The notes under the pieces were generated by a model that did no database searches, had not been told where the DNA came from, and worked only from the letters and a program-made list of their open reading frames with translations. A DNA stretch of 64,000 nt from Thermodesulfobacteriota bacterium (GTDB lineage: Bacteria > Desulfobacterota_D > UBA1144 > Nemesobacterales > JAZGCJ01): NCBI GenBank assembly GCA_036476895.1, contig JAZGCJ010000341.1:18114-82113 (forward strand), written 5' to 3'. Both the position numbers and the translations under genes were made by a program. Shown here piece after piece: positions 10,033 to 62,693 of this stretch (positions within the stretch are counted from its first letter, which is position 1; every line of letters starts with the position of its first letter).

Positions 10033-10170
10033 GATAATCTCCTCGAGATTTCAATAAGTACATTATTGTTTCGAGACTTTATAAGTCTGACCAATTTGAT
10101 ATCAATGCATTGACGGAAGATACAAAAGTATTTAAAGTCTGGAATGTAATATATTACTTGTGAACAAATA

Positions 10171-24374: not shown

Positions 24375-24813
24375 TGAATTTAGAACCTTTTTTTATACTA
24401 AGAAATGTTAATGTAAATAATTCGGTGGGGATATATAATGTAGGGAAGTCTCAACTCCTTACCTCTCAAATCCCAAGAGAGTGAATCCTCTACGCCAATG
24501 TTAGCCAAGGTTTTGATACCAGCAGCACGGTCCTTACCCTTAGAACTGTTTAACCACTGATCGCAGAGTCCCGGACTTGAGGAGCATCCTGGAGTGCCTA
24601 TATATTCTTGGTAACGAAGTCCCATCAAGTATTTGTATAGAACAAATACATGGTGACTGAGGCTAATCAATCGGGCTCGGTTTTCTAAAAACATAGTTTT
24701 TTATTCCAAGCCCCTGAGTTTTTAGCTCAAGGGTTATTGACTAAAGATTTTGGTTTGCCGAATTATTTCGCTCACTACATAGATTTTTTTCAAGAATTTA
24801 AGTAATTTTTGTT

Positions 24814-27484: not shown

Positions 27485-29062
27485 TCACTTAATATTGTTC
27501 TTTACAATGCGGTCAATTTCGGCCACTGTAAGCGAATCAATGGCCCGTCTAAAAAAAGGTCGTGGTAATGTTCCGTTTTTTGCAATGGAAAAACGGATTG
27601 CGTTGGCAATCTTTAGAGCTTCTGCATCTCTTGTTTTTCTTTTCCTACCAGTTCCTGTAGATACTTGAACTCGAATCTTTCGCTTAACCCATGCCAGGAT
27701 TGGGTCTAATGGAGGCATGTGAGGTCGTGTGTTCCCACAAAAGGTTGGCTTCCCATTTCGTCTTACATAAAAGTTTCCATTTGAAACAGATAAACAGTAA
27801 ACCTTTCCTGAGTATGGGTAAAGTGAAACAGTTCTTGCATCCACCCACAAACTATTTGATTTCTTAATATATACAGTATAAGAAGGAAAATTACGTTTAT
27901 ACATTTTATTGTTAATACTGAATTCTCCTCTCAAGTCCCTAACTCCTATATAACTCCAAAAACCACACTTTAAGGCCAGTTCTTGAACATCACTGGCTAG
28001 ACCAATACTACTTGTATGGTACCTAGGATAAGAGCCAGAACTTGTTACAGCAGTACTTCCATCACCCACTAATAGTGCTTCAAGTAAACCCTCGGAAAAA
28101 GTTTTATTGTATTGGAGAAATTCCCGAGGAATTCGCTTAAAAGGAGCAAGTTTGTTTAATCCCTTTTTAGCTAACCAACTAACTAATTGAACATTTGAAA
28201 TTCTGAATTTTTTCCCATCGTAAATATATTTAAAAGGTAGTTTATCTAACACATTTTGGATATACAAGCAACCGTCTTGTTTTGTTTGTGATATATTTAA
28301 TCTATAATTTTTGTTAGGATATCGCTTGTCATTTTCAATATTACCTTCACTAATGATCAGTCCCAAAAAGTTTGCAAAGTTCAACGGATTAATTTTGAGT
28401 GTTGGTTTTTCTAAATCTATATACTCTTTCTGTTTCCCTAAGAAATGTTGTTCCATATATTTGTTAATTTCCACATCGATTAGAGAATTGCCTTTCCAGC
28501 TTCCAACAGTGGGTATGTATCCTCTGTATCCTTTTAAGATTGATTTTGCAGGTCTGAAATGTAGATTCTTTTTGTTCCTGTTATACATTAACATACGATG
28601 ATCTGGTGTGACCAACAGATCCAAATACCTATTTTTAAAATGTAATAAATCTCCTGACCAATCTCTCTCTGTTATTTTTTTAGGGTAGCTATATTCTATT
28701 TTACCACTCCTCACATTTAAAGTGCAGACAATATCATTAATTGTACATTTTGTAATTGATTTCCATCCATGTGTTGTTAGAACCTCTGTATCAGCAGAAT
28801 AACATCCAAACTCGATGAACGGGGCATGAAAAGCATCGAAGATAACTTTTTTCTTTAATCTTTTTCGTTCAACTCTTCCAGAACGAGCTAGTGTTCCTCT
28901 ATCAAAAGCACCTTCGCCTATTGCAGGTGAGAAATTAGCGGACCGTAAGTTTTCATCTGCTTCGCTTAGGACAAAATCAGCCATGTCATCTAAGGCTCGG
29001 TCAAGTTGATCTAAGAAATCATCGTAGATTTTTTCAACTGTATCCCCCAAAAGTTTGACCAT
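27485..29062 (-). CDS. HK97 gp10-family virion protein interrupted by an intein with LAGLIDADG homing endonuclease
   Basis: N-extein ends FHAPFIEFG. Intein starts CYSADTEVLTTHGW (block A), has block B LLVTPDHRML and LAGLIDADG-like FLGLIISEGNI and LLEALLVGDGST, and ends VYCLSVSNGNFYVRRNGKPTFCGN. The +1 residue is T, followed by RPHMPPLDPILAW (gp10-family ...YVEFGT..MPA.P.L pattern). Confidence 0.65.
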   Translation of the reverse strand: MVKLLGDTVEKIYDDFLDQLDRALDDMADFVLSEADENLRSANFSPAIGEGAFDRGTLARSGRVERKRLKKKVIFDAFHAPFIEFGCYSADTEVLTTHGWKSITKCTINDIVCTLNVRSGKIEYSYPKKITERDWSGDLLHFKNRYLDLLVTPDHRMLMYNRNKKNLHFRPAKSILKGYRGYIPTVGSWKGNSLIDVEINKYMEQHFLGKQKEYIDLEKPTLKINPLNFANFLGLIISEGNIENDKRYPNKNYRLNISQTKQDGCLYIQNVLDKLPFKYIYDGKKFRISNVQLVSWLAKKGLNKLAPFKRIPREFLQYNKTFSEGLLEALLVGDGSTAVTSSGSYPRYHTSSIGLASDVQELALKCGFWSYIGVRDLRGEFSINNKMYKRNFPSYTVYIKKSNSLWVDARTVSLYPYSGKVYCLSVSNGNFYVRRNGKPTFCGNTRPHMPPLDPILAWVKRKIRVQVSTGTGRKRKTRDAEALKIANAIRFSIAKNGTLPRPFFRRAIDSLTVAEIDRIVKNNIK

Positions 29063-35430: not shown

Positions 35431-35487
35431 CGTAAGACCTGAATCATTGTCTGTGAATTCCCCTTAATAGTATTATTATTTTGACCA

Positions 35488-35551
35488 TTTCATTAACGGA
35501 AGATACAAAAGTATTTAAATTCTGGAATGAATGAATTACTTGTGAACCACA
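35488..35551 (+). promoter_or_regulatory. conserved promoter/leader cassette (copy)
   Basis: ttaACGGAAGATACAAAAGTATTTAAAttctggaatgaatgaattaCTTGTGAACcacaATG. Nearly identical to 10114-10173. Confidence 0.55.
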
Positions 35552-36013: not shown

Positions 36014-36056
36014 GAAAAATCGGGTAGTAGCTCAGCAATGAGTTGCTATCCTTTTT

Positions 36057-36341
36057 TTAGGCCTTATTCATCCATTCGTTAAATATTTTTACCATTTCGG
36101 TGGATGGTATATCAAATCCATATAGATGTCTAACGTGTTCATATACAAATCGGCAATCTGCTGCATTCAGATTTATCTTCTGTATATTTGCTATTGATTT
36201 TTCAATATACTCGATTTGAAATTCGAGTTTCTTTTCCTTTCTTAATTGTTCTATCACTTTTGTTATATACTCGTTCATATTAATCACTTGGATGGGAATA
36301 GCAGGAGAAAGAATCGAACTTTCCAACACCGGGTTTCTCAT
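36057..36341 (-). CDS. hypothetical small protein (true start probably the internal Met near 36278)
   Basis: 94-aa ORF. Its N-terminal 21 codons overlap an orphan tRNA 3'-half-like sequence, so MNEYITKVIEQL... is the more plausible start. Confidence 0.35.
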   Translation of the reverse strand: MRNPVLESSILSPAIPIQVINMNEYITKVIEQLRKEKKLEFQIEYIEKSIANIQKINLNAADCRFVYEHVRHLYGFDIPSTEMVKIFNEWMNKA

Positions 36342-36843
36342 ACGTAAGTCCTAAAGATCTGTAGCCTTTAGGATCCACCACGACTACCACTCTAAAGCAT
36401 GAATACTTCCATATTCAATTTTTATGGTTTCCTCAAAATGTTGCTTACGTTTATAAGCCCGGCTGTCAACCATTGGCATTTCCTGCTTTATACTAAATCT
36501 CTATAGGTTGCGCTTTTATACCCGCATTTATTACATATAAATCTATATCGGGGCGATATTCCACCATCGGGTTGTTTAATTGTTCCTAAATCTATTTTTT
36601 GCATTTTAGTATTACAATGGTTTTTCAGTTTAAGCATTTTATTTACTTCCTGCTTTAATCTTCAATGATAAGATACGCCACTAAACAAGAATGATTATCA
36701 AAATCCTTATCAAACATACGGTTAACACATAAACTTCCGCAGTTATCAATTTTAAATTTATTACCTTTATAGGAGATAATATCATCTGTCTTGTACGTAT
36801 CTAAAATTGGGGGGTATTTTGCATTCATTTTATTTCCTCAGGA

Positions 36844-36938
36844 TGGGAACGCCAGGACTCGAACCTGGGTCACAGTTTGGCACTGTATGTTACCAAGGCA
36901 ACCTTATGTGAAGAGGTTCCCATTAACACCACGTTCCC
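36844..36938 (-). tRNA. tRNA gene, about 95 nt (intron-containing or long variable arm); isotype not resolved
   Basis: Minus-strand sequence has acceptor GGGAACG/CGTTCCC, a GG-containing D-loop, T-arm CCAGG-TTCGAGT-CCTGG, discriminator A, and no encoded CCA. About 20 nt longer than a canonical tRNA. Confidence 0.55.
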
Positions 36939-37081
36939 TTAATGATATTGTTCAATAACATGATGAATGCGTTTTCTTTTTGGTTTCCTTCTGTGAACTA
37001 TCCTACTTTCCTTAGTGAGAGAGGGACATCCACAATCATGTTTTTTTGCCATACTTTGTAATACTATCCTTTTTTATTAAT

Positions 37082-37153
37082 TGGAGGGACGGGTGGGACT
37101 TGAACCCACGACAGTAGTTATCTGCTCGGGCCCGTTCATTTGGTAACCGCCCC
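37082..37153 (-). tRNA. tRNA gene (72 nt including encoded CCA); isotype not resolved
   Basis: Minus-strand acceptor GGGGCGG/CCGTCCC (one G-U pair), T-arm GTGGG-TTCAAGT-CCCAC, discriminator T, then CCA. The D-arm is short or atypical. Confidence 0.5.
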
Positions 37154-37215
37154 ATTTTTTTTTGGGATCCAAGGATTTTAAAAATTTTTCTGTGATTGCT
37201 GACCAATGCATTGTT
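37154..37215 (-). promoter_or_regulatory. tRNA promoter (AATGCATTGGTCA box + AAAATTTTTAAAA TATA-like element about 25 nt upstream of the tRNA 5' end)
   Basis: Minus-strand reading: caATGCATTGGTCAgcaatcacagAAAAATTTTTAAAAtccttggatcccaaaaaaaaa, then the tRNA. Confidence 0.45.
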
Positions 37216-37337
37216 TTTGCATCTAGGAAATACTTTGGGAACAGGATTTCTAGGGATAAAAACGCACGCAGTTGAATCAATGCAGCATCGTGAAAGGTAA
37301 AGTATCATTCAAAAATCAACCTTTGAGGATGCAAAAC

Positions 37338-40343: not shown

Positions 40344-43300
40344 TTACCTCACTGTAGCATCAAATGTATAATCTTTAGTTTTCTTAGCAGTAAATGTATA
40401 TTGAACAGATTTAGTAGCAGTAAATGTATATTGAACAGATTTAGTAGCATCGAATGTGAACGCAATTGTCTTTGTTGGTTCACAAGTAAATTTAATTGTT
40501 TTGGTAGCATCAAAAGTTAAGTCTCCAATGGCAACAATCTCCACTTCTCGAGAAAGTGTCCTGGAGGCTTGTGCATCTTGCTGCACAACACGACTGACAG
40601 ATCGGCTCGCCCGAGCCTCGTTCTGGATTTCTCTGAATAGGCTAATTGAGGCACGTGCTTCGTTTTGGATGGCCCTCGAAACCGATCTACTGGCCCTCGT
40701 TTCCTGTTTCACAATTCTAGTCAAAGATCGACTATTACGTGCCTGAGCTTGTGTCATACGGCTAATTGTTTGACTAACTCTGGTTTCCTGTTGAATCTCC
40801 CTTGAAACTGTCCTTGATTTACGGTCTTCCATCTCTGGAGTTCTGGTTATGCTGCGGGATGCTCTTGCTTCCTGCTGAACCTGTCGAGATACAGTAACAC
40901 TATTACGTGCCTCTTTCTGCACTTCTCGTAACAAGGATCTGGAAGCCCTTGCAGTCAGGATAACTTCACGACTTATTATTCTTGAATCTCGTGCATCTTG
41001 TTGAACCTGTCTTTGGACGGATCTTGATGCCTTAGCTTCCTGTTGTGCAGTTCGGGTTAAACTCCTTGAGGCTAATGCTACAATAATAACCTCTCTGGAT
41101 ACTGTTCTTGATGCCCTTGCATCTTGTTGAACTATTCGGTGAACAGATCGTGAAGCTCGTGCTTCTTGTTGTACAATTCTTGTCAGACTTCTACTAGCAC
41201 GAGCCTCGGACTGTACCACTCTATGAACTGAACGAGAATCCCTTGCAGTTCCAATAACCTCTCTGCTTATTGTTCGGCTAGCTCTGGCCTCCTGTTGAAT
41301 TACTCTCGAAACAGACCGACTGGCTCTTGCCTCACTCTGTACAACTCTATGTAGCGATCTTGACGCTCGTGCTTCTTGGAGTACATTTCGTGTGACGCTT
41401 CTACTCGCACGATCATCCTGTTGAACGACTCGGTGAACTGATCGAGATGCCTGTGCATCCTGTTGGATTTCCCTGGATATGGTTCGACTATTACGTGCCT
41501 CTTGTTCGACTATTCTGTGAACTGAACGACTAACTCTGGCCTCAGCCTGGGTTTTCCTTGATATCGTCCTACTCGCACGGGCCTCCTGTTTTACTTCTCT
41601 TGTAACACTTCTTGAGGCTCTGGCTTCCTGTTTTACAACTCTTGTGACTGATCTGCTAGCCCTTGATTCCTGTTGAACCTGTCTGCTCACTGATCTGCTA
41701 GCCCTTGCCTCAGACTGTACTATTCGATGAATTGACTTACTAACTCGGGTCTCTTGCTTTACAACCCTGTGAACAGACCTGCTAGCACGGGCTTCCGCTG
41801 ATCCTGCACTTCTCGTCACAGATATGCTCTGTCTTGCTTCTTGTTGAACTTCTCGGCTTATGGTACGTGAGGCCCTGGCAGAATTAACAGTTTCTCGTGA
41901 CACAGTTCTTGATACACGAGCTTCTTGTTCCACTATTCGGTGAACAGACCTGCTAATTCGGCCCTCATCTTTGATGGTACGAGCTAGTCCCCTACTAACC
42001 AAAACAAGACATTCTGGTAATCCAAGCGTGTGAAAGGTCGAAGGACTATTTTGATTATTATATTCAGATAAAATCCATCCCGCAGTATGGACTATATCAG
42101 AAATCCGAATTTCATCCATAATTGCATTAACGGCTTGACTAGCATGAGATACAAGAAACGGATCTGAATTAGCGAGACTACTATCTACTTCGTCCATATT
42201 ATCATTATTATCCTCAACTCCATTTTCATAAATCCTTAATAAAGCTGGTATTCTATCAACTTGACCAACAAAATAAATCCATATCCCTGTTGTTGGTATT
42301 GGAACTCTTGATGTATCCTGAGTATCTCCATCAGCATCTTCTACCTCAAACTTCATTCCGTTAACAAGAGAAGTAAGATTAAAAGAATATCCAGCATTAC
42401 CAGCAAATTCTCCTTTGTCAATAGGTCGTCTTGGCCCCCCTCCCGAATTAAAATTAATCCACATAGAAACAGTTAAATCTAAAGCAAAGTCTAAATGCCC
42501 ATCCCCGGGATCTCCCATACTAACTTGCCCATTAAATCCATCAAAATTATAAGCATCCCCAATTTTACCAGTCGATCCTTGTGTTGTACCTCCAGATATA
42601 ATCCCGTCTGTATTATGAATAGTAGAATCTTTAGCATTACCAGATGCTTCTTGGAAGTGCCAAACTCCTTTATAATTGGAATTCCAAGTTCCTGGTTTGT
42701 TTTGTTGGTCAGTTGCCCCAGAATTGTTATAATACATATAGATGTCTGTATCTATGGAACCGCTAATGAAAGGAAGGTTTACCCAAGCAATCAACTCTCC
42801 TGTGCCAGTGACATATAGCACACGTTCGTGATTAAGTTTTGTCACACCATCGGAGGATGTAAAGAGAATATCAAATCCATCTGACCGTGCATCATCCGAT
42901 AGGTTAGCATCGCTAGTTAATCTAATGAGTACGGGAAAATCAACTAAATTCTCGGCAATCTTAGTAGAGTCGATGGTGACTTTCTTTCGGCAAATCCAAT
43001 CATTATCAAACCATTGAACTGCAGGTGCTACCGTCCTTGACAAGGGACGACTAGCTCTGGTCACTTGTTCTATAGTCCTTGTTAAAGATCTGGATGCACG
43101 TGTCTCTTGCTGTACTTGTCTGGATAGAGATCTGCTCACACGAGCTTGATCGAGTACTTTTCTTGTAATTGATCTACTAGCCCGTGCAGTAAAAACAACT
43201 TCCCTGGATATTGTCCTACTAACTCTGGTATCCTTTTGAACAATCCGGTGAACACTTCTTGAGGCTTGAGCATCCTGTTCTACTTCTCTGGATAGGTGTC

Positions 43301-44672
43301 TTGACGCTCGTGCTTGATCAGTCATTGTTCTTGTGACTGATCGTGAGGCTTGGTCAGAGTTAATAGCCTCTCTGCTGATGGTACGGGAAACCCTTGTTTC
43401 CTGTTGAACCACTCGATGAACAGAACGACTATCTCTAGTTACCTGTTCAACCGTTCTTGATAAGGATCTGGATGCCCTTGCGGATTGTTGTTGTTCAAAT
43501 TCAATTACGAAGAACGTTCTATTTCTGGCTGTATCGGCAGTGGCAACCTCGTCATTCCCGAGATCCTCCCACTGGAAGCTAAATGTGGTCGATGCGGTTA
43601 TCCCTGTTTTTGCCCAAATTTGGCAAAGCCCCGTCACTTCGTGATCATGATCTACAAACGTAGTGAGTTCAGATCCCTCTCTTGTACCTGCTACGGCTAT
43701 TCTATATTGGGTAGTACTTTCAGCGGAGCCACCAGTCGCATTTGACGGATTAAAGTTAGCTACAATTAAATGAATGGCATTTGAGGCATTAGGGGTATAA
43801 GTCCCTGTCATGCCAGTCATATCGGCATAACTGACCGGGGATGTGGCAGACGAGGTAAGATTGACATCAACTTTTAAAACTGCATTACTTTTAATTTCTA
43901 CAATTTGAAAGGTTCGCAGTCTGCCGGTATCTACACTTGTAGTCTGCCCTTCTCTTGTCTGCCATTGTAATTCAAATCCATGACTTCCTGATATTCCATC
44001 AAGAATGTGCATTCCAGACCATCCCGGCCCCTCATCAATTTCGTCCTTAAATACACTGGTAATTGCTCCCTCTTTAGTGCCATCTACAGAGAATTGAAAA
44101 TCCGCAGTGTCGTCTGAAGAATCTGATAAATCAATTGGCACATTTGCAATCATTAAAAGAACACTACCAGTTCCTGCAACAGAGATACTGCTAGCACTAA
44201 ACAGATTACCCCACGTACTTGGGGAGGCTGCTGCCCCAGTTGAGGATTGGTTTACTAGAATACTAGCGTCCCCATCTGTAATTTCAATGACTTGGAGTGA
44301 CTGCTCTCGAGCAGTGTCCATGTTCGCATCAGATATTACATCTTGCCATTCACATTTAAAACTATTAGATGATCCTGATAGCCCAGTAACCGCAAACATT
44401 ATAGTCATAGGATGAACACCCCCTACTGAGTGAATGTTATCCGTAAATGCAGTAACTACAGGGCTCCCAGTGGCAGACCCATTGACACTGATTCTGAATT
44501 CGGCAGTTGCATCCCCCTCATCCTTTAAAGGAACTTGAGCAATTATAAGTAATACGCTACTGGTATTCTTTACAGTGATACCACTTGCTGTCAAACCTGG
44601 GACAATACCCCACGTAGCAGGGGCAGTACCTGAACTTAAAGAGGTTATATCAACCAGTAGATTTGAAGGCAT
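40344..44672 (-). CDS. giant fibre-like structural protein with about 50 tandem Arg/Ser-rich 14-aa repeats flanking a LamG/concanavalin-like domain
   Basis: 1442 aa. Repeat unit about RASRSVxRxVQQEA (42-nt DNA periodicity) in two blocks. Central domain ...FDGFNGQVSMGDPGDGHLDFALDLTVSMWINFNSGG... is LamG-like. N-terminal β-rich Ig-like region. C-terminus has short 10-aa repeats (TKSVQYTFTA) encoded by 30-nt tandem DNA repeats at 40380-40450. Confidence 0.6.
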   Translation of the reverse strand: MPSNLLVDITSLSSGTAPATWGIVPGLTASGITVKNTSSVLLIIAQVPLKDEGDATAEFRISVNGSATGSPVVTAFTDNIHSVGGVHPMTIMFAVTGLSGSSNSFKCEWQDVISDANMDTAREQSLQVIEITDGDASILVNQSSTGAAASPSTWGNLFSASSISVAGTGSVLLMIANVPIDLSDSSDDTADFQFSVDGTKEGAITSVFKDEIDEGPGWSGMHILDGISGSHGFELQWQTREGQTTSVDTGRLRTFQIVEIKSNAVLKVDVNLTSSATSPVSYADMTGMTGTYTPNASNAIHLIVANFNPSNATGGSAESTTQYRIAVAGTREGSELTTFVDHDHEVTGLCQIWAKTGITASTTFSFQWEDLGNDEVATADTARNRTFFVIEFEQQQSARASRSLSRTVEQVTRDSRSVHRVVQQETRVSRTISREAINSDQASRSVTRTMTDQARASRHLSREVEQDAQASRSVHRIVQKDTRVSRTISREVVFTARASRSITRKVLDQARVSRSLSRQVQQETRASRSLTRTIEQVTRASRPLSRTVAPAVQWFDNDWICRKKVTIDSTKIAENLVDFPVLIRLTSDANLSDDARSDGFDILFTSSDGVTKLNHERVLYVTGTGELIAWVNLPFISGSIDTDIYMYYNNSGATDQQNKPGTWNSNYKGVWHFQEASGNAKDSTIHNTDGIISGGTTQGSTGKIGDAYNFDGFNGQVSMGDPGDGHLDFALDLTVSMWINFNSGGGPRRPIDKGEFAGNAGYSFNLTSLVNGMKFEVEDADGDTQDTSRVPIPTTGIWIYFVGQVDRIPALLRIYENGVEDNNDNMDEVDSSLANSDPFLVSHASQAVNAIMDEIRISDIVHTAGWILSEYNNQNSPSTFHTLGLPECLVLVSRGLARTIKDEGRISRSVHRIVEQEARVSRTVSRETVNSARASRTISREVQQEARQSISVTRSAGSAEARASRSVHRVVKQETRVSKSIHRIVQSEARASRSVSRQVQQESRASRSVTRVVKQEARASRSVTREVKQEARASRTISRKTQAEARVSRSVHRIVEQEARNSRTISREIQQDAQASRSVHRVVQQDDRASRSVTRNVLQEARASRSLHRVVQSEARASRSVSRVIQQEARASRTISREVIGTARDSRSVHRVVQSEARASRSLTRIVQQEARASRSVHRIVQQDARASRTVSREVIIVALASRSLTRTAQQEAKASRSVQRQVQQDARDSRIISREVILTARASRSLLREVQKEARNSVTVSRQVQQEARASRSITRTPEMEDRKSRTVSREIQQETRVSQTISRMTQAQARNSRSLTRIVKQETRASRSVSRAIQNEARASISLFREIQNEARASRSVSRVVQQDAQASRTLSREVEIVAIGDLTFDATKTIKFTCEPTKTIAFTFDATKSVQYTFTATKSVQYTFTAKKTKDYTFDATVR

Positions 44673-52011: not shown

Positions 52012-52521
52012 CTAAATTAAACCAAATTTTCTAAGAACGGAATCTTCACTATCGGCTTCAACTTTATCGCCAGTAGGTGATAAAATATCGCCACCAAAGA
52101 TCTCATTCTCTAACGAGTCTAATAATTGTTGATTTGTTCCTTTTTTTTTCAGATCTATTATCAATTGGACATGATCATCAACAGGAGCACTTTCATTTTC
52201 AAAATATCGGTTATAACATCGGTTTCCTTTTAATCTGGATAAAGGTTCAAAACACATCCAAAGATCTACCCCGGTAACATTTCCTTTTTCATCCTTCTCC
52301 GGATAATGAGGAATTTTTAGTATAAGCAAATCTTTGATTTGTTCTTCTGATGGATGATAGCTAAAACCGTCTCCGTTTTCATCTACCAACCTGTTACAGA
52401 TTGCACAGTGTTTTATATATCCAGCAATACCACAATGAATACAATATCTTGGGTATTTAGGTGCTCTTGGAGAATCACGATCTCCACAAATTTTACAATA
52501 GCTCATTTTTGTTTTCACCAT
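52012..52521 (-). CDS. zinc-ribbon protein
   Basis: 169 aa, CKICGD...CIHCG...CAICN. Preceded by a hairpin-pair leader element. Confidence 0.4.
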   Translation of the reverse strand: MVKTKMSYCKICGDRDSPRAPKYPRYCIHCGIAGYIKHCAICNRLVDENGDGFSYHPSEEQIKDLLILKIPHYPEKDEKGNVTGVDLWMCFEPLSRLKGNRCYNRYFENESAPVDDHVQLIIDLKKKGTNQQLLDSLENEIFGGDILSPTGDKVEADSEDSVLRKFGLI

Positions 52522-52586: not shown

Positions 52587-53003
52587 TTAATAGTCTTCTG
52601 GCAACATTATGGTATAATGAGGGGCATTTTCCTCAATCTCATTCATACAAACCCAAACTTCAATTTTTACGCCATTGGGGGATTCAACTTTGATATTGTA
52701 GAAATGATCAGGCTCGGTTGTCAAATTTTTTGTCTTAAGTTTAATGGCATGTAAGCTATTATTCAAAAGATCAATTAAATTTGGTACATTGACTGAATCT
52801 TCTTCCGAATTCCAATAATTATGAGTTCTCAAGAGATTCATAGTTGCATGGGTTATCAAAGAGTTAAATAGATTCACGTTTTTGAATTGGGTTCTGATAT
52901 CAAATAAGATACCATCTTCTGTTGCTTGCTGACTACTGTATTCGCTTATGACGAATAAATCGTCAGATTCCTTTTGTGTCATGTTTGGTTCACTAGCCTC
53001 CAA
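52587..53003 (-). CDS. hypothetical protein
   Basis: 138 aa. Confidence 0.35.
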   Translation of the reverse strand: MEASEPNMTQKESDDLFVISEYSSQQATEDGILFDIRTQFKNVNLFNSLITHATMNLLRTHNYWNSEEDSVNVPNLIDLLNNSLHAIKLKTKNLTTEPDHFYNIKVESPNGVKIEVWVCMNEIEENAPHYTIMLPEDY

Positions 53004-53071
53004 AACCGATTAACTCGGTTGGCGAAAGCTCGCCGGAGAAAAAATTGAGGAAGAAAGGGAGACTGAATTAA

Positions 53072-53353
53072 TTACTCGGTCTCGGATGCTTCACTCGCCC
53101 GTAAGGGCCTAGTAACGCTCCCCGAAGGGAGTCTCTCCTCGCCAATGTTATCATGGCTTGTTCGGCCTAACACACTGTTCGCTACCCCGGCAAACTGTTT
53201 AATGTTAGACGACATTGCTGCAGACTGGAGAAGCATCCACAGGTGTCCTAACCATAATAACGGAGTCCATACAATCACTTGCATATCATTCCAAGGCTGG
53301 TCAAGCAGTTGTTTGGGGAGTTCTTGACCGTTGATATCATTCCTTACCAACAA
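53072..53353 (-). CDS. hypothetical small protein
   Basis: 93 aa. Driven by the conserved promoter cassette at 53354-53410. Confidence 0.35.
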   Translation of the reverse strand: MLVRNDINGQELPKQLLDQPWNDMQVIVWTPLLWLGHLWMLLQSAAMSSNIKQFAGVANSVLGRTSHDNIGEERLPSGSVTRPLRASEASETE

Positions 53354-53410
53354 GTAAATATACCATTCTAGACTTTAAATACTTATGTATCTTCTGTTAA
53401 TACATTGATG
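53354..53410 (-). promoter_or_regulatory. conserved promoter cassette (minus orientation) with AATACATTGA box shared with divergent + gene
   Basis: Minus-strand reading: tcAATGTATTAACAGAAGATACATAAGTATTTAAAGTCTAGAATGgtatatttacttgttggtaaggaATG. Homologous to 10102-10173. Confidence 0.5.
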
Positions 53411-53456
53411 AAAAACCAAAACATTTTTGTAGATATCCTTCCCCGATGGACTTAGT

Positions 53457-53948
53457 ATGGACCCACAAATTATAGATGGAAAAATCTTTTGTAAATGGTG
53501 CCGGAACCCCTGTACCGAAGGGGATGTTCATCCCGAGTGTCAAAACCTTGTGGATTCATTTACAGAAGATAGCACGGTATTCACTCCTATTAGTAATCTA
53601 AAAATCATAGAGTTTGAAATTACACAGAATACTAATGATGAGTACCAGTATTTCATGCACAGCCCCGAGCCTCAAGCTATTTATGGCAATCCCACTAAAA
53701 AAATCACTGCCAAAATAATCTTAGATTCGGAAGCCTATGAGCAATTTGTTTTAGGCGAGGAAAAAGAAATTGACTTTTCAGATCAACTGCTTGACGGTAC
53801 ACAGCTAAAGGTTCGCTTTCGGATTACTCAAATAAGGGTTTCCCATCTTACAAATGAGATTCCGGTAATGGAAGTCCGGGGCGATATAATTGAAATGAGT
53901 GTGTCTGCACAGGAACAAGATGGAGAAAATAATTTTTATAATACATGA
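53457..53948 (+). CDS. zinc-ribbon protein
   Basis: 163 aa, CKWCRNPC...HPECQ. Followed by ncRNA-like copy C. Confidence 0.4.
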   Translation: MDPQIIDGKIFCKWCRNPCTEGDVHPECQNLVDSFTEDSTVFTPISNLKIIEFEITQNTNDEYQYFMHSPEPQAIYGNPTKKITAKIILDSEAYEQFVLGEEKEIDFSDQLLDGTQLKVRFRITQIRVSHLTNEIPVMEVRGDIIEMSVSAQEQDGENNFYNT

Positions 53949-53961
53949 ATTGCCCCCAAGC

Positions 53962-53989
53962 AAAAAAAAGGTAACTCCGAAGAGTTACC
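53962..53989 (-). terminator. intrinsic terminator for minus-strand transcripts (8-bp stem, CGAA/UUCG loop, flanked by A8/T8)
   Basis: aaaaaaaa-GGTAACTC-CGAA-GAGTTACC-aaaaaaaa on the + strand. On the minus strand the hairpin is followed by U8. Confidence 0.55.
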
Positions 53990-54039
53990 AAAAAAAACCC
54001 CGCAAAAACTTATAAAGTCAAGACCTTGTTTTTGTTTTG

Positions 54040-54260
54040 TAAGTACTTCGGTACAAGCCTAGGTCGGGAATCGACCAATGTTACGCCTATCTGAGGTTAT
54101 GGCCTCTGCTGATCTGTAGTCGGTTGTTTTTAAATGGCTCATTGCAGGAACGTAAGCTAGATCAATGAAGTAGGAAACTCAGTTTTCTGAGTAGTTCATA
54201 AGATGCCTAAGGATTCCAGTTAAGAGGGATCAAAATTTGGGTAAGGGAGTATTTTTTTTC
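54040..54260 (+). ncRNA. candidate structured ncRNA, copy C of a 2-member family
   Basis: ORF-free GC-rich segment with GTAC-UUCG-GUAC and GGTCG-GGAAT-CGACC hairpins. Shares blocks GGCCTCTGCT (54101), CGGTTG (54121), GATCAATGAA (54160) and GTTCATAAGATGCCTAAGGATTCCAGTTAAG with 10600-10800 at matching spacing. A TATA-like cttataaag lies about 30 nt upstream and a T8 run at 54253-54260. Confidence 0.45.
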
Positions 54261-54354
54261 TAATTCGGTTTTCCATATCATAGTTGGTTCACCTGTATAA
54301 GGCTTTCCCCTAAAAAGGGAAAGGTGATTACTTAAGGCAATCAATCTGAGATAC

Positions 54355-54648
54355 CTAAGAGCCCCATTTATAGCGATGTATTAAATCTCTAGCTTGGGGT
54401 TCAGTGATGTTGTATCTAATATTACGGTCTCCGACGTGTCTCATTATGTGGATATATTCATAATTACCAGAGAATTCAAATTCCATACCCAATTTTAAGT
54501 GAGTATCTAAGAAAAATTGTTTATTACTTGTATCATAATCCAGATACAATAAGTGCGAGCCGAAATCCTCTAACAAGGTAATAAATCCTTCTTTAAATTT
54601 TGCAACACGGTCTTCAAAGTTTTCTATTTTTTGTTCGATTGATATCAT
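54355..54648 (-). CDS. hypothetical protein
   Basis: 97 aa. GGTGAAC 9 nt upstream of the ATG. Confidence 0.4.
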   Translation of the reverse strand: MISIEQKIENFEDRVAKFKEGFITLLEDFGSHLLYLDYDTSNKQFFLDTHLKLGMEFEFSGNYEYIHIMRHVGDRNIRYNITEPQARDLIHRYKWGS

Positions 54649-54735
54649 AGTTGTTGTTCACCTGAGCTAATAAGCTCCTCCTCTTAATTGGTGAGAAAAA
54701 AAGGAAAAAGATTGTTTAGGACAATCAATCCAATT

Positions 54736-54975
54736 TTAAACTGTTTTCCATTTGTCAATACCATCAAGCAAACTTAATCCAGTGCCTATATCCCATTTAA
54801 CGTCTAATTTCCATTTTCCTGCTTCTAAAGACCATGCACTTGCATAACCTTGATCTCCAGGAGATAAATTAGTGTATGGGTCATCTGTGTAAACCAATTC
54901 AATTTTAACTGGTTCATCAAACACTAAAAATTTGCTATTTCGTGGTTTTGTTGGAAGTCTGTTTTGTGTGTTCAT
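54736..54975 (-). CDS. hypothetical small protein
   Basis: 79 aa. Directly downstream of the conserved promoter cassette at 54976-55058. Confidence 0.4.
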   Translation of the reverse strand: MNTQNRLPTKPRNSKFLVFDEPVKIELVYTDDPYTNLSPGDQGYASAWSLEAGKWKLDVKWDIGTGLSLLDGIDKWKTV

Positions 54976-55058
54976 AGTTGTTCACAAGTAATATATTGCA
55001 TTCCAGACTTTATAAGTTTATGTATCTTCCGTTAATACATTGAACCGAAATGCATTGA
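54976..55058 (-). promoter_or_regulatory. conserved promoter cassette (minus orientation)
   Basis: Minus-strand reading: tcAATGCATTtcggttcAATGTATTAACGGAAGATACATAAACTTATAAAGTCTGGAATGcaatatattaCTTGTGAACaactATG. Near-identical to 10102-10173. Confidence 0.55.
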
Positions 55059-58907: not shown

Positions 58908-59006
58908 TTGTTAAGAAAATGCTTAATAAGTGTTTTGTTTGTTAATGGTCCATACCAAAAGGTTAAACTTTTAAAGTCTCGAGTGGCAGAAGAGACATGT
59001 GAACCA

Positions 59007-61198: not shown

Positions 61199-61570
61199 TT
61201 TCGACTCCTAACTTACTAGTATTTACAAATCTGGTTCAGCTATAACCGTTATTTTATAATTAGAATCACGCATTAGTTTTTCTAATTTCTCTTTAAATAA
61301 TTCATATTCTTCTAATTTTGATTTTCCAGAAATTTCTAATGTAATTTTCATAATTTTCCTAAACTCCAAACTTTTATGATACCAATTCAACTCAAAAGTC
61401 TTGCAATTCCATATAGAAAATCTCTAAAGTGTCATCAGAATCATCATCTGCCAGGGTAACATAAACATCCCACATAGGATGCCTTTTTAGAAATTCTTTA
61501 TGTCCAGGAGTTAATTCACTAAAGTCTTTCCATTTTTGCTTCTCTGTTTGGCTCATAATAATCCACTAAC

Positions 61571-61831
61571 TTATTCTGGGTCATAGAGGTACGCACAATA
61601 GGGACAAGCAATTTCATCCCCGTCATGGGATTTCTCGCATTTTGGGCATTGAACCTTTAAGATATCCTTAGCCTCTTTATCTTTTTCATACCCATCAGGC
61701 CATCCATACTGCTCACGCCTCAGCCATTCTTTCTCTGCCTCAGGTAGATTATCAGGTATGAAATTTATAATACCAATTTTTTCTTTCTTTTTTGACATAA
61801 TTTTGCACATCCAAATTCTACCATTATTCAA
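61571..61831 (-). CDS. zinc-ribbon small protein
   Basis: 86 aa, CPKCEK...CPYCA. Confidence 0.35.
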   Translation of the reverse strand: MNNGRIWMCKIMSKKKEKIGIINFIPDNLPEAEKEWLRREQYGWPDGYEKDKEAKDILKVQCPKCEKSHDGDEIACPYCAYLYDPE

Positions 61832-61848
61832 GTTTTTAAATAGTTTCC

Positions 61849-62130
61849 TTGTATCATCGGATCATGGAAGACTTGATGGGAATTGTTGTTTTGGCCGCAT
61901 TAACGGGAGCAGGAGTTGCATTTGTATTATCTATATTCCTATTACCTGGGATGGATTTTCTTTTAGCCCTAATAAGAGAGGCTTTTTATAGAGCTAGAAC
62001 TAATTGGCTAATTAAGAAAGGGGTAATTAAAATAGAACACCGCAAATGGGAGTTCACTGGAGTAGATATTGAAACAGGGGTATTAAAAATGCGTGAGGTT
62101 TTGGACCTTAACGAGGAACTCGATACTTAG
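61849..62130 (+). CDS. small membrane protein
   Basis: 93 aa. Hydrophobic N-terminal half LMGIVVLAALTGAGVAFVLSIFLLPGM. Confidence 0.35.
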   Translation: MYHRIMEDLMGIVVLAALTGAGVAFVLSIFLLPGMDFLLALIREAFYRARTNWLIKKGVIKIEHRKWEFTGVDIETGVLKMREVLDLNEELDT

Positions 62131-62384
62131 GGATATCCAATTGCATTTCCAAATTTTTTTGGACCCTGACCTGGACATTTAAGCAACCCGTTTCTGTCGT
62201 TCTTTCTACTGGTAGGGAAGGAGAAGACCAGGTTGAAGCATCGTAAAGCTGTTTTAAATGTGAAAAACCTCGTTAAATTCAACGAGGTTGGAGACACATC
62301 TTGACAGATGATGCACCTGCTTTGAAGTCTGGTGCTGGTTATAGAACGAGAGGTCGGGAATTTTTCCCGTTTATTCAGTTCTTC

Positions 62385-62459
62385 GGAAAATTTCTTGATT
62401 ATTCAAAAGTTGGGAAAATTTCCACATTATTCAAAAGTTGAGAAAATTTCCAAAAAAAA
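62385..62459. repeat. tandem 28-nt direct repeats (2.7 copies), iteron-like
   Basis: GGAAAATTTCTTGATTATTCAAAAGTTG / GGAAAATTTCCACATTATTCAAAAGTTG / AGAAAATTTCCAAAAAAAA. Lie within a 560-nt ORF-free, hairpin-rich region. Confidence 0.6.
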
Positions 62460-62693
62460 TAGTGAAAGTAGATCAAAAAAAGAATTATAGGCCAGATCTA
62501 CTTTCGTTGTCCAACTTTAGGAATACATGACAATTGGTAGTTATAATCTAATCTTAAAAATCTATTGGCACGGATTTCGTGCTAGTGGCCAAGTTTTTTG
62601 GCCAACAAAGATTTAAAATGAAAAAAAAAGATTCTAACTTCTTTGTTAGTGATTTCATTCTAAAATTGTCTTATACATATACTATTTAAAGGG

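Follow-up and report, generated by a model that had tools for sequence, protein, structure and literature searches.

An evolutionarily conserved structured RNA with two diverged copies in the genome of an uncultured tailed phage

Comparing two sequences, we show that the + strand of the window (the whole stretch of 64,000 nucleotides that was analysed) encodes an evolutionarily conserved structured RNA, which occurs once as copy C and once as copy A. By sequence comparison and database search, the element is a two-member, previously uncatalogued family of phage structured small RNA. Taken as a whole, the data are best explained by a ~240-nt structured non-coding RNA gene on the + strand, one of two old, diverged paralogs, which would act in trans; we give this reading a probability of roughly 55%. 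The role of the element is probably regulatory, and we favour a trans-acting regulator or a protein-binding scaffold.

The first-pass annotation had placed a second copy of an ncRNA-like element at 54040-54260 and labelled it copy C. Performing an nhmmer search, we recovered one paralog, copy A, through a match that spans 10619-10787 (+) (E=1.3e-6); blastn at word size 7 on the window missed this paralog. A covariance model derived from the pair scored 287 bits on 10596-10850 and 243 bits on 54036-54262, and the next-best match in the window reached 14 bits with the filters off. The existence of a second copy is thus borne out. Using the same model, we found no third copy in the 74 kb covered (the 64-kb window and a further 10 kb of the contig), so that the label "copy C", while given to an element with a genuine paralog, overstates the count. 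The homology with copy A extends slightly beyond the limits first proposed, over 54001-54262. The box at the 5' border of copy C (consensus CGCAAA..CTT.AT.AAGT) is identical to the box before copy A at 15 of 18 positions (83%). The body is 66% and the 3' domain 73% identical between the copies, and the 5' leaders share 10 of 24 positions after gapped alignment.

Aligning the two copies by sequence only with MAFFT, we obtained 45 RNAalifold pairs in which 90 of 90 cells hold standard pairs and 14 of the 45 pairs are double compensatory; the structure was derived from the same two sequences, so that the compensatory count rather than the percentage of paired cells is the informative measure, and the covariation is one pairwise comparison because there are only two sequences. 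When the 3' partners were slid by 1-3 columns, 21-43% of the cells were paired and 0-3 pairs were compensatory. None of 500 shuffles reached the observed pairing and compensatory values. A structure-guided alignment, parts of which (P4 outer and P5) were aligned with the fold in mind, gave 49 pairs, with 23 unchanged, 16 compensatory, 6 one-sided and 3 broken in one copy.

In the structure-guided alignment, G·U pairs fill 25 of the 98 pair cells. Their complements on the minus strand would be A·C mismatches, which marks the + strand as the folded strand. The minimum free energy of copy C is -61 kcal/mol on the + strand vs -40 kcal/mol on the minus strand, and that of copy A is -62 vs -51 kcal/mol. 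The body of copy A has an MFE z-score of -2.41 on the + strand vs -1.12 on the minus strand; copy C alone gives a modest fold z-score (-1.3). The G·U content and the strand difference in folding energy of copy C agree with the earlier suggestion of an ncRNA-like element that is functional on the + strand. We found no conserved reading frame: stops interrupt all frames of copy C, and the two copies have no ORF in common. Neutral positions (the loops and the 5' leader) are saturated with change, and the helices are kept by compensatory substitutions. Saturated neutral sites, compensated helices and the lack of a conserved frame together show that the RNA fold is under selection in both copies.

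Both copies are predicted to fold alike, with two short 5' hairpins, an irregular hairpin of ~90 nt, a further hairpin and a conserved 3' domain (Table 1). P2 differs from copy A by 2 compensatory and 2 one-sided changes; its pair probability in copy C is at least 0.97 for 5 of 6 pairs and 0.41 for the closing G·U. Within the long hairpin, the inner P4 helix (GGUUG/UGGCU) contains 4 G·U in 5 consecutive pairs, and these are kept in both copies. The differences inside the otherwise invariant blocks are all compensatory or wobble-neutral (for example, C-G to U-A at 54100/54159). At the P5 site, copy A carries CCACUU-CCUUU-AGGUGG between conserved anchors, and 4 of the 6 P5 pairs are compensatory in the structure-guided alignment; the P5 pair probability is 0.98-0.99 for 5 of 6 pairs and 0.76 for the outermost one. 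Single-sequence partition functions recovered P2, P4 (both) and P5 (copy C) with high pair probabilities. P3 is strong in the single-sequence fold of copy A and reaches only ~0.55 in that of copy C.

Table 1. Positions of the features discussed in the text, counted from the first letter of the window.
Feature	Position	Strand	Description
Copy C	54001-54262	+	paralog of copy A
Copy A	10562-10847	+	box 10562-10578, leader, body, terminator 10809-10838 followed by T7
ORF163	53457-53948	+	zinc-ribbon-like orphan gene; 163 aa, CxxC...HxxC; directly upstream of copy C; called in the source record
ORF95	10171-10458	+	orphan gene before copy A; carries the canonical promoter module
Promoter-like box	54001-54018	+	CGCAAAAACTTATAAAGT; likely -10 TATAAA at 54011-54016, predicted start near 54023
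Variable 5' leader	54019-54042	+	about 19-24 nt; unrelated in sequence between the copies, whose leaders are ACCUUGUUUUUGUUUUGUA and AACAAUCCAACAAUUAUGA
P1	54043-54054	+	GUAC-UUCG-GUAC; conserved, weak in the copy C ensemble
P2	54062-54076	+	GGUCGG-GAA-UCGACC; GAA triloop
Long irregular hairpin	54086-54174	+	~90 nt; same nested helices by RNAalifold on the MAFFT alignment; conserved blocks GGCCUCUGCU, UCGGUUG, UGGCUCA, GUAAG, GAUCAAUGAA
P3a	54086-90/54170-74	+	
P3b	54095-103/54156-63	+	
P3c	54107-09/54152-54	+	
P4 outer	54113-21/54140-48	+	
P4 inner	54122-28/54133-39	+	GGUUGUU/AAUGGCU
P5 hairpin	54177-54192	+	ACUCAG-UUUU-CUGAGU
3' domain	54191-54242	+	GUAGUUCA 54191-98, CCUAAGGA 54206-13, AAAAUUUGG 54232-40; blocks identical in both copies
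P6 hairpin	54205-17/54226-42	+	probability >0.9 in copy C; copy A equivalent uncertain
T-run, presumed 3' end	54250-54260	+	GGGAGTA, then T8 at 54252-54259
Intrinsic terminator	53962-53997	-	T8-hairpin-T8 on the minus strand; 8-bp stem, 4 G-C pairs, TTTTTTTT tail
Mini-ORF	54207-54282	-	24 codons; ATG at 54282, preceded by CAGGTGAACCAACTATG; canonical phage start context
Orphan HEARO/IscB omega RNAs	24481-24741, 53127-53328	-	108-109 bits; gathering score 83
Promoter/5'UTR module sites	10098-10170, 35484-35549	+	
Promoter/5'UTR module sites	55050-54976, 53411-53350, 55961-55870	-	
GTGAAC sites	10160, 35542, 39167, 58999, 59727	+	
GTGAAC sites	51583, 51941, 52993, 54292, 54661, 54985, 55882	-	

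The core of the box, AACTTATAAAGT, has an exact match at 55007-55018 (-), which is the -10 region of a recurrent phage promoter; this site belongs to a promoter/5'UTR module that is repeated in the window, and a gene starts ~32 nt after it. The box of copy C has no recognisable -35, and the sigma-70 scan made no call on it. From these signals, we infer that + strand transcription of the element would start near 54023, from a phage promoter with a conserved -10, and would end at the T-run, about 54259. The 5' end had been put at about 54040; the box points to a likely 5' end near 54023 instead. At the 3' end of copy C, the terminator scan found no + strand terminator hairpin, and no G+C-rich hairpin is adjacent to the T-run. 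The 3' end of copy A has a 13-bp terminator hairpin and T7, aligned with the T-run of copy C, and a further terminator-like hairpin (10506-10528) lies between ORF95 and copy A. The proposal of an independent + strand transcription unit is supported in part: the conserved box with the promoter -10 core fits it, but copy C is without a terminator hairpin, and read-through from ORF163 into copy C is possible. Between ORF163 and copy C lies a hairpin that has A8 behind it in the + direction; this makes no + strand terminator, so that ORF163 transcripts would not be stopped there.

The A8-hairpin-A8 terminator of the minus strand that had been described beside copy C is present. It consists of A8 (53962-53969), the hairpin GGTAACTC-CGAA-GAGTTACC (53970-53989) and A8 (53990-53997), and the scan calls an 8-bp stem followed by T8. 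The claim that it insulates the element from antisense transcription has the geometry reversed. A minus-strand polymerase that comes from the genes at 54355-54975 crosses 54262-54040 before it reaches 53989-53962; for this polymerase, the terminator lies downstream of the element, and it thus shields ORF163 and not the element. The convergent minus-strand operon is likely to be transcribed through copy C in the antisense direction.

The 24-codon minus-strand ORF that was said to start at 54282 behind a sequence motif also exists. This mini-ORF is preceded by a two-hairpin intergenic module and GTGAACCAACTATG, as are the genes that start at 52521 and 51930. Its peptide is chimeric, with only the first 7 codons outside the homology with copy A, and so the mini-ORF looks like a gene start that was truncated when the island arrived. 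The two-hairpin minus-strand module (GATTGCCTTAAGCAATC, CTTTCCCTTTTTAGGGGAAAG) is found at 54358-54283, 52590-52522 and 51981-51931, just before gene starts, where it could serve in processing or attenuation.

The window makes up most of the 88-kb contig JAZHCF016853949.1 of NCBI assembly GCA_044345325.1, where window position x corresponds to contig position 64503-x; it has a G+C content of 37.7% and carries nearly all its genes on the minus strand. It encodes a family-B DNA polymerase, a large terminase, a portal, a prohead protease and a major capsid protein, and this gene set identifies the DNA as the genome of an uncultured tailed phage. The contig was deposited within a Thermodesulfobacteriota MAG although it is a phage genome; the Thermodesulfobacteriota label may be a binning effect rather than an indication of the host. 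Even in the nearest relatives that could be detected, the terminase is only ~48% identical and gene order is hardly shared with this phage. The loci of these terminase relatives hold no copy of the element and no HEARO, and the covariance model matched nothing in three related phages.

Both copies of the element follow a small + strand orphan gene, within + strand islands among minus-strand genes. The ORF that had been reported upstream of copy C (ORF163) is real as an ORF. It has no homolog among 5.8 billion proteins and none in IMG/VR; likewise, ORF95 has no relatives in IMG/VR or in the 5.8-billion-protein set. Neither protein has a Pfam or PHROG match, and the two are unrelated to each other. 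The AF2 model of ORF163 has a pLDDT of 51, which makes it unusable. A 97-aa neighbour protein has no relatives in IMG/VR. Downstream of copy C, the next + strand ORF of at least 100 aa starts at 58908. The neighbouring genes after copy A are all on the minus strand; the convergent gene there stops at 10844, where the terminator lies, and the RNA body is free of any overlap. Since neither copy has a + strand gene directly downstream, we reject a riboswitch or another 5' leader.

Searching the whole window with Rfam 15 at the gathering threshold, we obtained two HEARO matches only, neither of them a copy of the element, and permissive Rfam searches of each copy gave sub-threshold noise only. The HEARO covariance model (RF02033) did not match copy A or copy C even at E<=10 in 300-nt searches; kinship with HEARO, for which there were scattered MAFFT matches only, is therefore rejected. 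Like the element, the HEARO/IscB omega RNA is about 200-260 nt long and multi-helix, with a scaffold after a variable 5' segment. In contrast to it, the element lacks the HEARO signature blocks GGAUGCUUC.CCAGUC, UUAAACAG and AUAACAUUGGCGAGG, lies on the opposite strand and has no IscB present. A match of copy A (10729-10847) to the ribosomal protein L20 leader (RF00558), with 30.9 bits and E=2e-4 in a 306-nt search against a gathering score of 58.7, was rejected as well: it owes its score to the U-rich spacer and the terminator, has no equivalent in copy C and stands in no infC-rpmI-rplT context. A conserved type I toxin-antitoxin antisense RNA is rejected because the 24-codon ORF is found at copy C only, with no counterpart at copy A. 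We also rejected a CsrB/RsmZ-type sponge, with 6 GGA per copy vs 3.4-3.8 expected (P = 0.11-0.15).

To look for relatives elsewhere, we scanned with exact words from the blocks invariant in both copies, and all matches were filtered by the covariance model. Four patterns hit 3+10+0+5 loci in viral contigs, and the scans hit 45 loci in metagenome contigs and 14 loci in GTDB genome contigs; all these numbers are at chance level, and none of the loci fits the covariance model. These were exact-word scans and not model searches, so diverged relatives may have been missed. Using blastn ("distant"), we obtained no match of either copy to INPHARED phages or of copy C to PLSDB plasmids. As no homolog was found elsewhere in the searched collections, there is no independent phylogenetic support for the pair.

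Among known RNAs, the trans-acting small RNAs of phages and prophages (DicF, IpeX) have their own promoter and a Rho-independent terminator, and typical base-pairing sRNAs are 50-120 nt long. The element resembles them as a stand-alone phage non-coding gene in a moron-like island, with a promoter-like box and, in copy A, a U-rich stretch and a terminator. Unlike them, it is much larger and more elaborately folded; its long invariant blocks suggest protein or tertiary contacts, and there is no Rfam relationship. In the 6S RNA, Y RNA and SRP RNA, a long irregular hairpin forms the core of a scaffold or decoy. The dominant ~90-nt irregular hairpin of the element, with its conserved internal loops, offers a general analogy to them, whereas its extra 5' hairpins and 3' domain are foreign to these RNAs, none of which it matches in Rfam.

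Two features of the element, the long unpaired blocks that do not vary and the equally invariant G·U helix, look like contact surfaces and point to an RNA that acts in trans as a scaffold or regulator, more than to a simple antisense RNA. Once transcribed, the element would act in trans as a scaffold RNA, in which the unpaired blocks GGCCUCUGCU, GAUCAAUGAA, GUAGUUCA and CCUAAGGA and the G·U helix would be the contact surfaces for a putative protein partner. The scaffold RNA would modulate the expression of the phage "GTGAAC" gene class via GUUCA(C/U) complementarity. We propose this specific mechanism, with its protein contacts and its GTGAAC-class targets, tentatively and judge it unlikely to be correct in all its parts.

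The motif GTGAAC-N4-7-ATG occurs at 12 gene starts, which are clustered at 51.5-59.7 kb and at the genes of the + strand islands. The invariant GUUCA(C/U) block of the element is complementary to the GUGAAC ribosome-binding motif. With the form of this motif found in the promoter/5'UTR module, copy C pairs over 9 bp (GUUCAUAAG + CUUGUGAAC) and copy A over 7 bp (GUUCACA + UGUGAAC). None of the 12 start regions offers the strictly invariant 8-mer a perfect Watson-Crick match of 6 nt. In the anti-GUGAAC match, pair number six depends on the C/U position, and the UUCA part of the block is mostly paired in the predicted ensembles. With only 5-6 invariant bases, partly paired in these ensembles, the evidence is weak, and we treat a possible anti-ribosome-binding-site seed against GUGAAC as a weak lead. 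The ~70-nt promoter and 5'UTR module itself reads CAATGyATTrACrGAAGATACAwAA..TAAAGTCTGGAATG..ACTTGTGAACAA..ATG. Close variants of it stand before two other gene starts, and the genes that carry the module probably form one temporal class.

Both copies come right after a small + strand ORF and lie within a + strand island, a position that would also suit a structured 3' UTR of the upstream gene (ORF163 or ORF95), or an RNA processed from it, that stabilises or regulates that mRNA. The A8 after the ORF163-copy C hairpin, which leaves no + strand terminator, and the copy C box without a -35 point the same way. We consider this unlikely, since a promoter-like box stands between the ORF and the RNA in both copies and the hairpin at 10506-10528 separates ORF95 from copy A; moreover, ORF163 and ORF95 are unrelated, which leaves the RNA and not the gene as the conserved partner. 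Less probable again is a cis-antisense regulator, in which pairing of the + strand RNA to the convergent operon transcript at its 3' end (the mini-ORF and its 3' UTR, up to the terminator at 53962-53989) would trigger processing or transcriptional interference. The minus-strand terminator beyond copy C would make the two transcripts overlap over ~240 nt, and the start context of the mini-ORF is genuine. However, the arrangement is not conserved, as the convergent gene at copy A ends without overlapping the body; a complex fold with G·U pairs is unnecessary for perfect antisense pairing; and the mini-ORF, 7 codons of which lie outside the element, resembles a truncated relic.

A guide-type RNA, with a conserved scaffold and a programmable 5' segment of ~19-24 nt that serves a host or phage effector, analogous to the IscB omega RNA, has in our estimate a slim chance. 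The leaders are unrelated between copies, next to a box at 83% and a scaffold at 66% identity with compensated helices; a leader of about 19-24 nt is within the range of IscB and Cas9 guides; and of the two orphan HEARO RNAs in the window, one lies 700 nt away with a canonical phage promoter. Against this stand the failure of HEARO and every other guide-RNA family to match even at E<=10, and the absence of an IscB/IsrB (RuvC with or without HNH), HNH-RuvC or TnpB-like ORF among the ORFs scanned in the window and the gene calls for 10 kb more of the contig. In particular, no same-strand IscB/IsrB is adjacent, and neither copy is followed by a + strand ORF. The loops of the hairpins are as randomised as the leaders, so that saturation alone predicts the leader divergence, and the leader 11-mers match only low-complexity sequence in the window. 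Copies A and C have no special complementarity to the HEARO RNAs, with duplex energies no better than those of shuffles. We rate as even slimmer an undescribed programmable RNA class that would join a protein-binding scaffold to a copy-specific 5' segment of ~20 nt and by which the phage, without an effector of its own, would redirect or jam host RNA-guided machinery. A functionless relic of a mobile or duplicated cassette, with hairpins left over from transposition or replication, is about as improbable as the IscB-like guide. It would agree with the + strand islands around both copies, with the gene start that appears truncated at copy C, with the loss of the terminator hairpin in copy C and with the uptake of other non-autonomous elements by this phage (for example, HEARO B inside a 5' UTR). 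Yet the 16 compensatory pairs vs 3 single mismatches indicate a fold that was maintained in both copies long after duplication, the G·U-rich helices favour RNA over single-stranded DNA structures, and the homology borders show no terminal inverted or direct repeats and no target duplications.

To our knowledge, few phage-encoded structured RNAs are known outside tRNAs and introns, and most of these are uncharacterised. The element combines purifying selection on a fold in two diverged paralogs with a position outside all catalogued families. Should it regulate one gene class, it would be a case of RNA-timed gene expression in an uncultured phage; should it serve a host protein as scaffold or guide, phage-host RNA interference would have a new form. 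A search for further family members in larger data can start from the two copies and the covariance model. The same genome carries two effector-less IscB guide RNAs, and a phage with guide RNAs but without the nuclease is worth attention by itself.

These two HEARO RNAs share ~60-70% identity, and the window and a further 10 kb of the contig contain no IscB-like ORF. The one closer to copy C (HEARO B) sits within the 5' UTR of a DUF6573 gene, 52982-53411 (-), where the promoter module (53411-53372) is broken after ACTTGT. The ~350 nt that follow are G+C-richer and contain the HEARO scaffold and several GC hairpins, after which the usual GTGAACCAAACATG resumes; the start of the DUF6573 gene is therefore ATG 52982 and not TTG 53003. 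HEARO B looks like a non-autonomous IS200/605-type insertion.

Elsewhere in the window, a 525-aa ORF at 27485-29062 (-) joins an HK97-gp10-like tail-component N-terminus to a LAGLIDADG_3 domain; an intein, or a homing endonuclease inserted into a structural gene, may account for this. A 1442-aa ORF with a DUF2341 match, 40344-44672 (-), holds many diverged 42-nt-periodic internal repeats at ~40.5-43.5 kb. Two gene-poor stretches (36014-37337 and 61199-62693) extend over 1.3-1.5 kb with no ORF of at least 100 aa; the model matches inside them are chance matches, at a G+C of ~0.2-0.3. A 28-nt tandem repeat (2.6 copies) lies at 62381-62452, and this repeat and the gene-poor stretches may be origin or regulatory regions.
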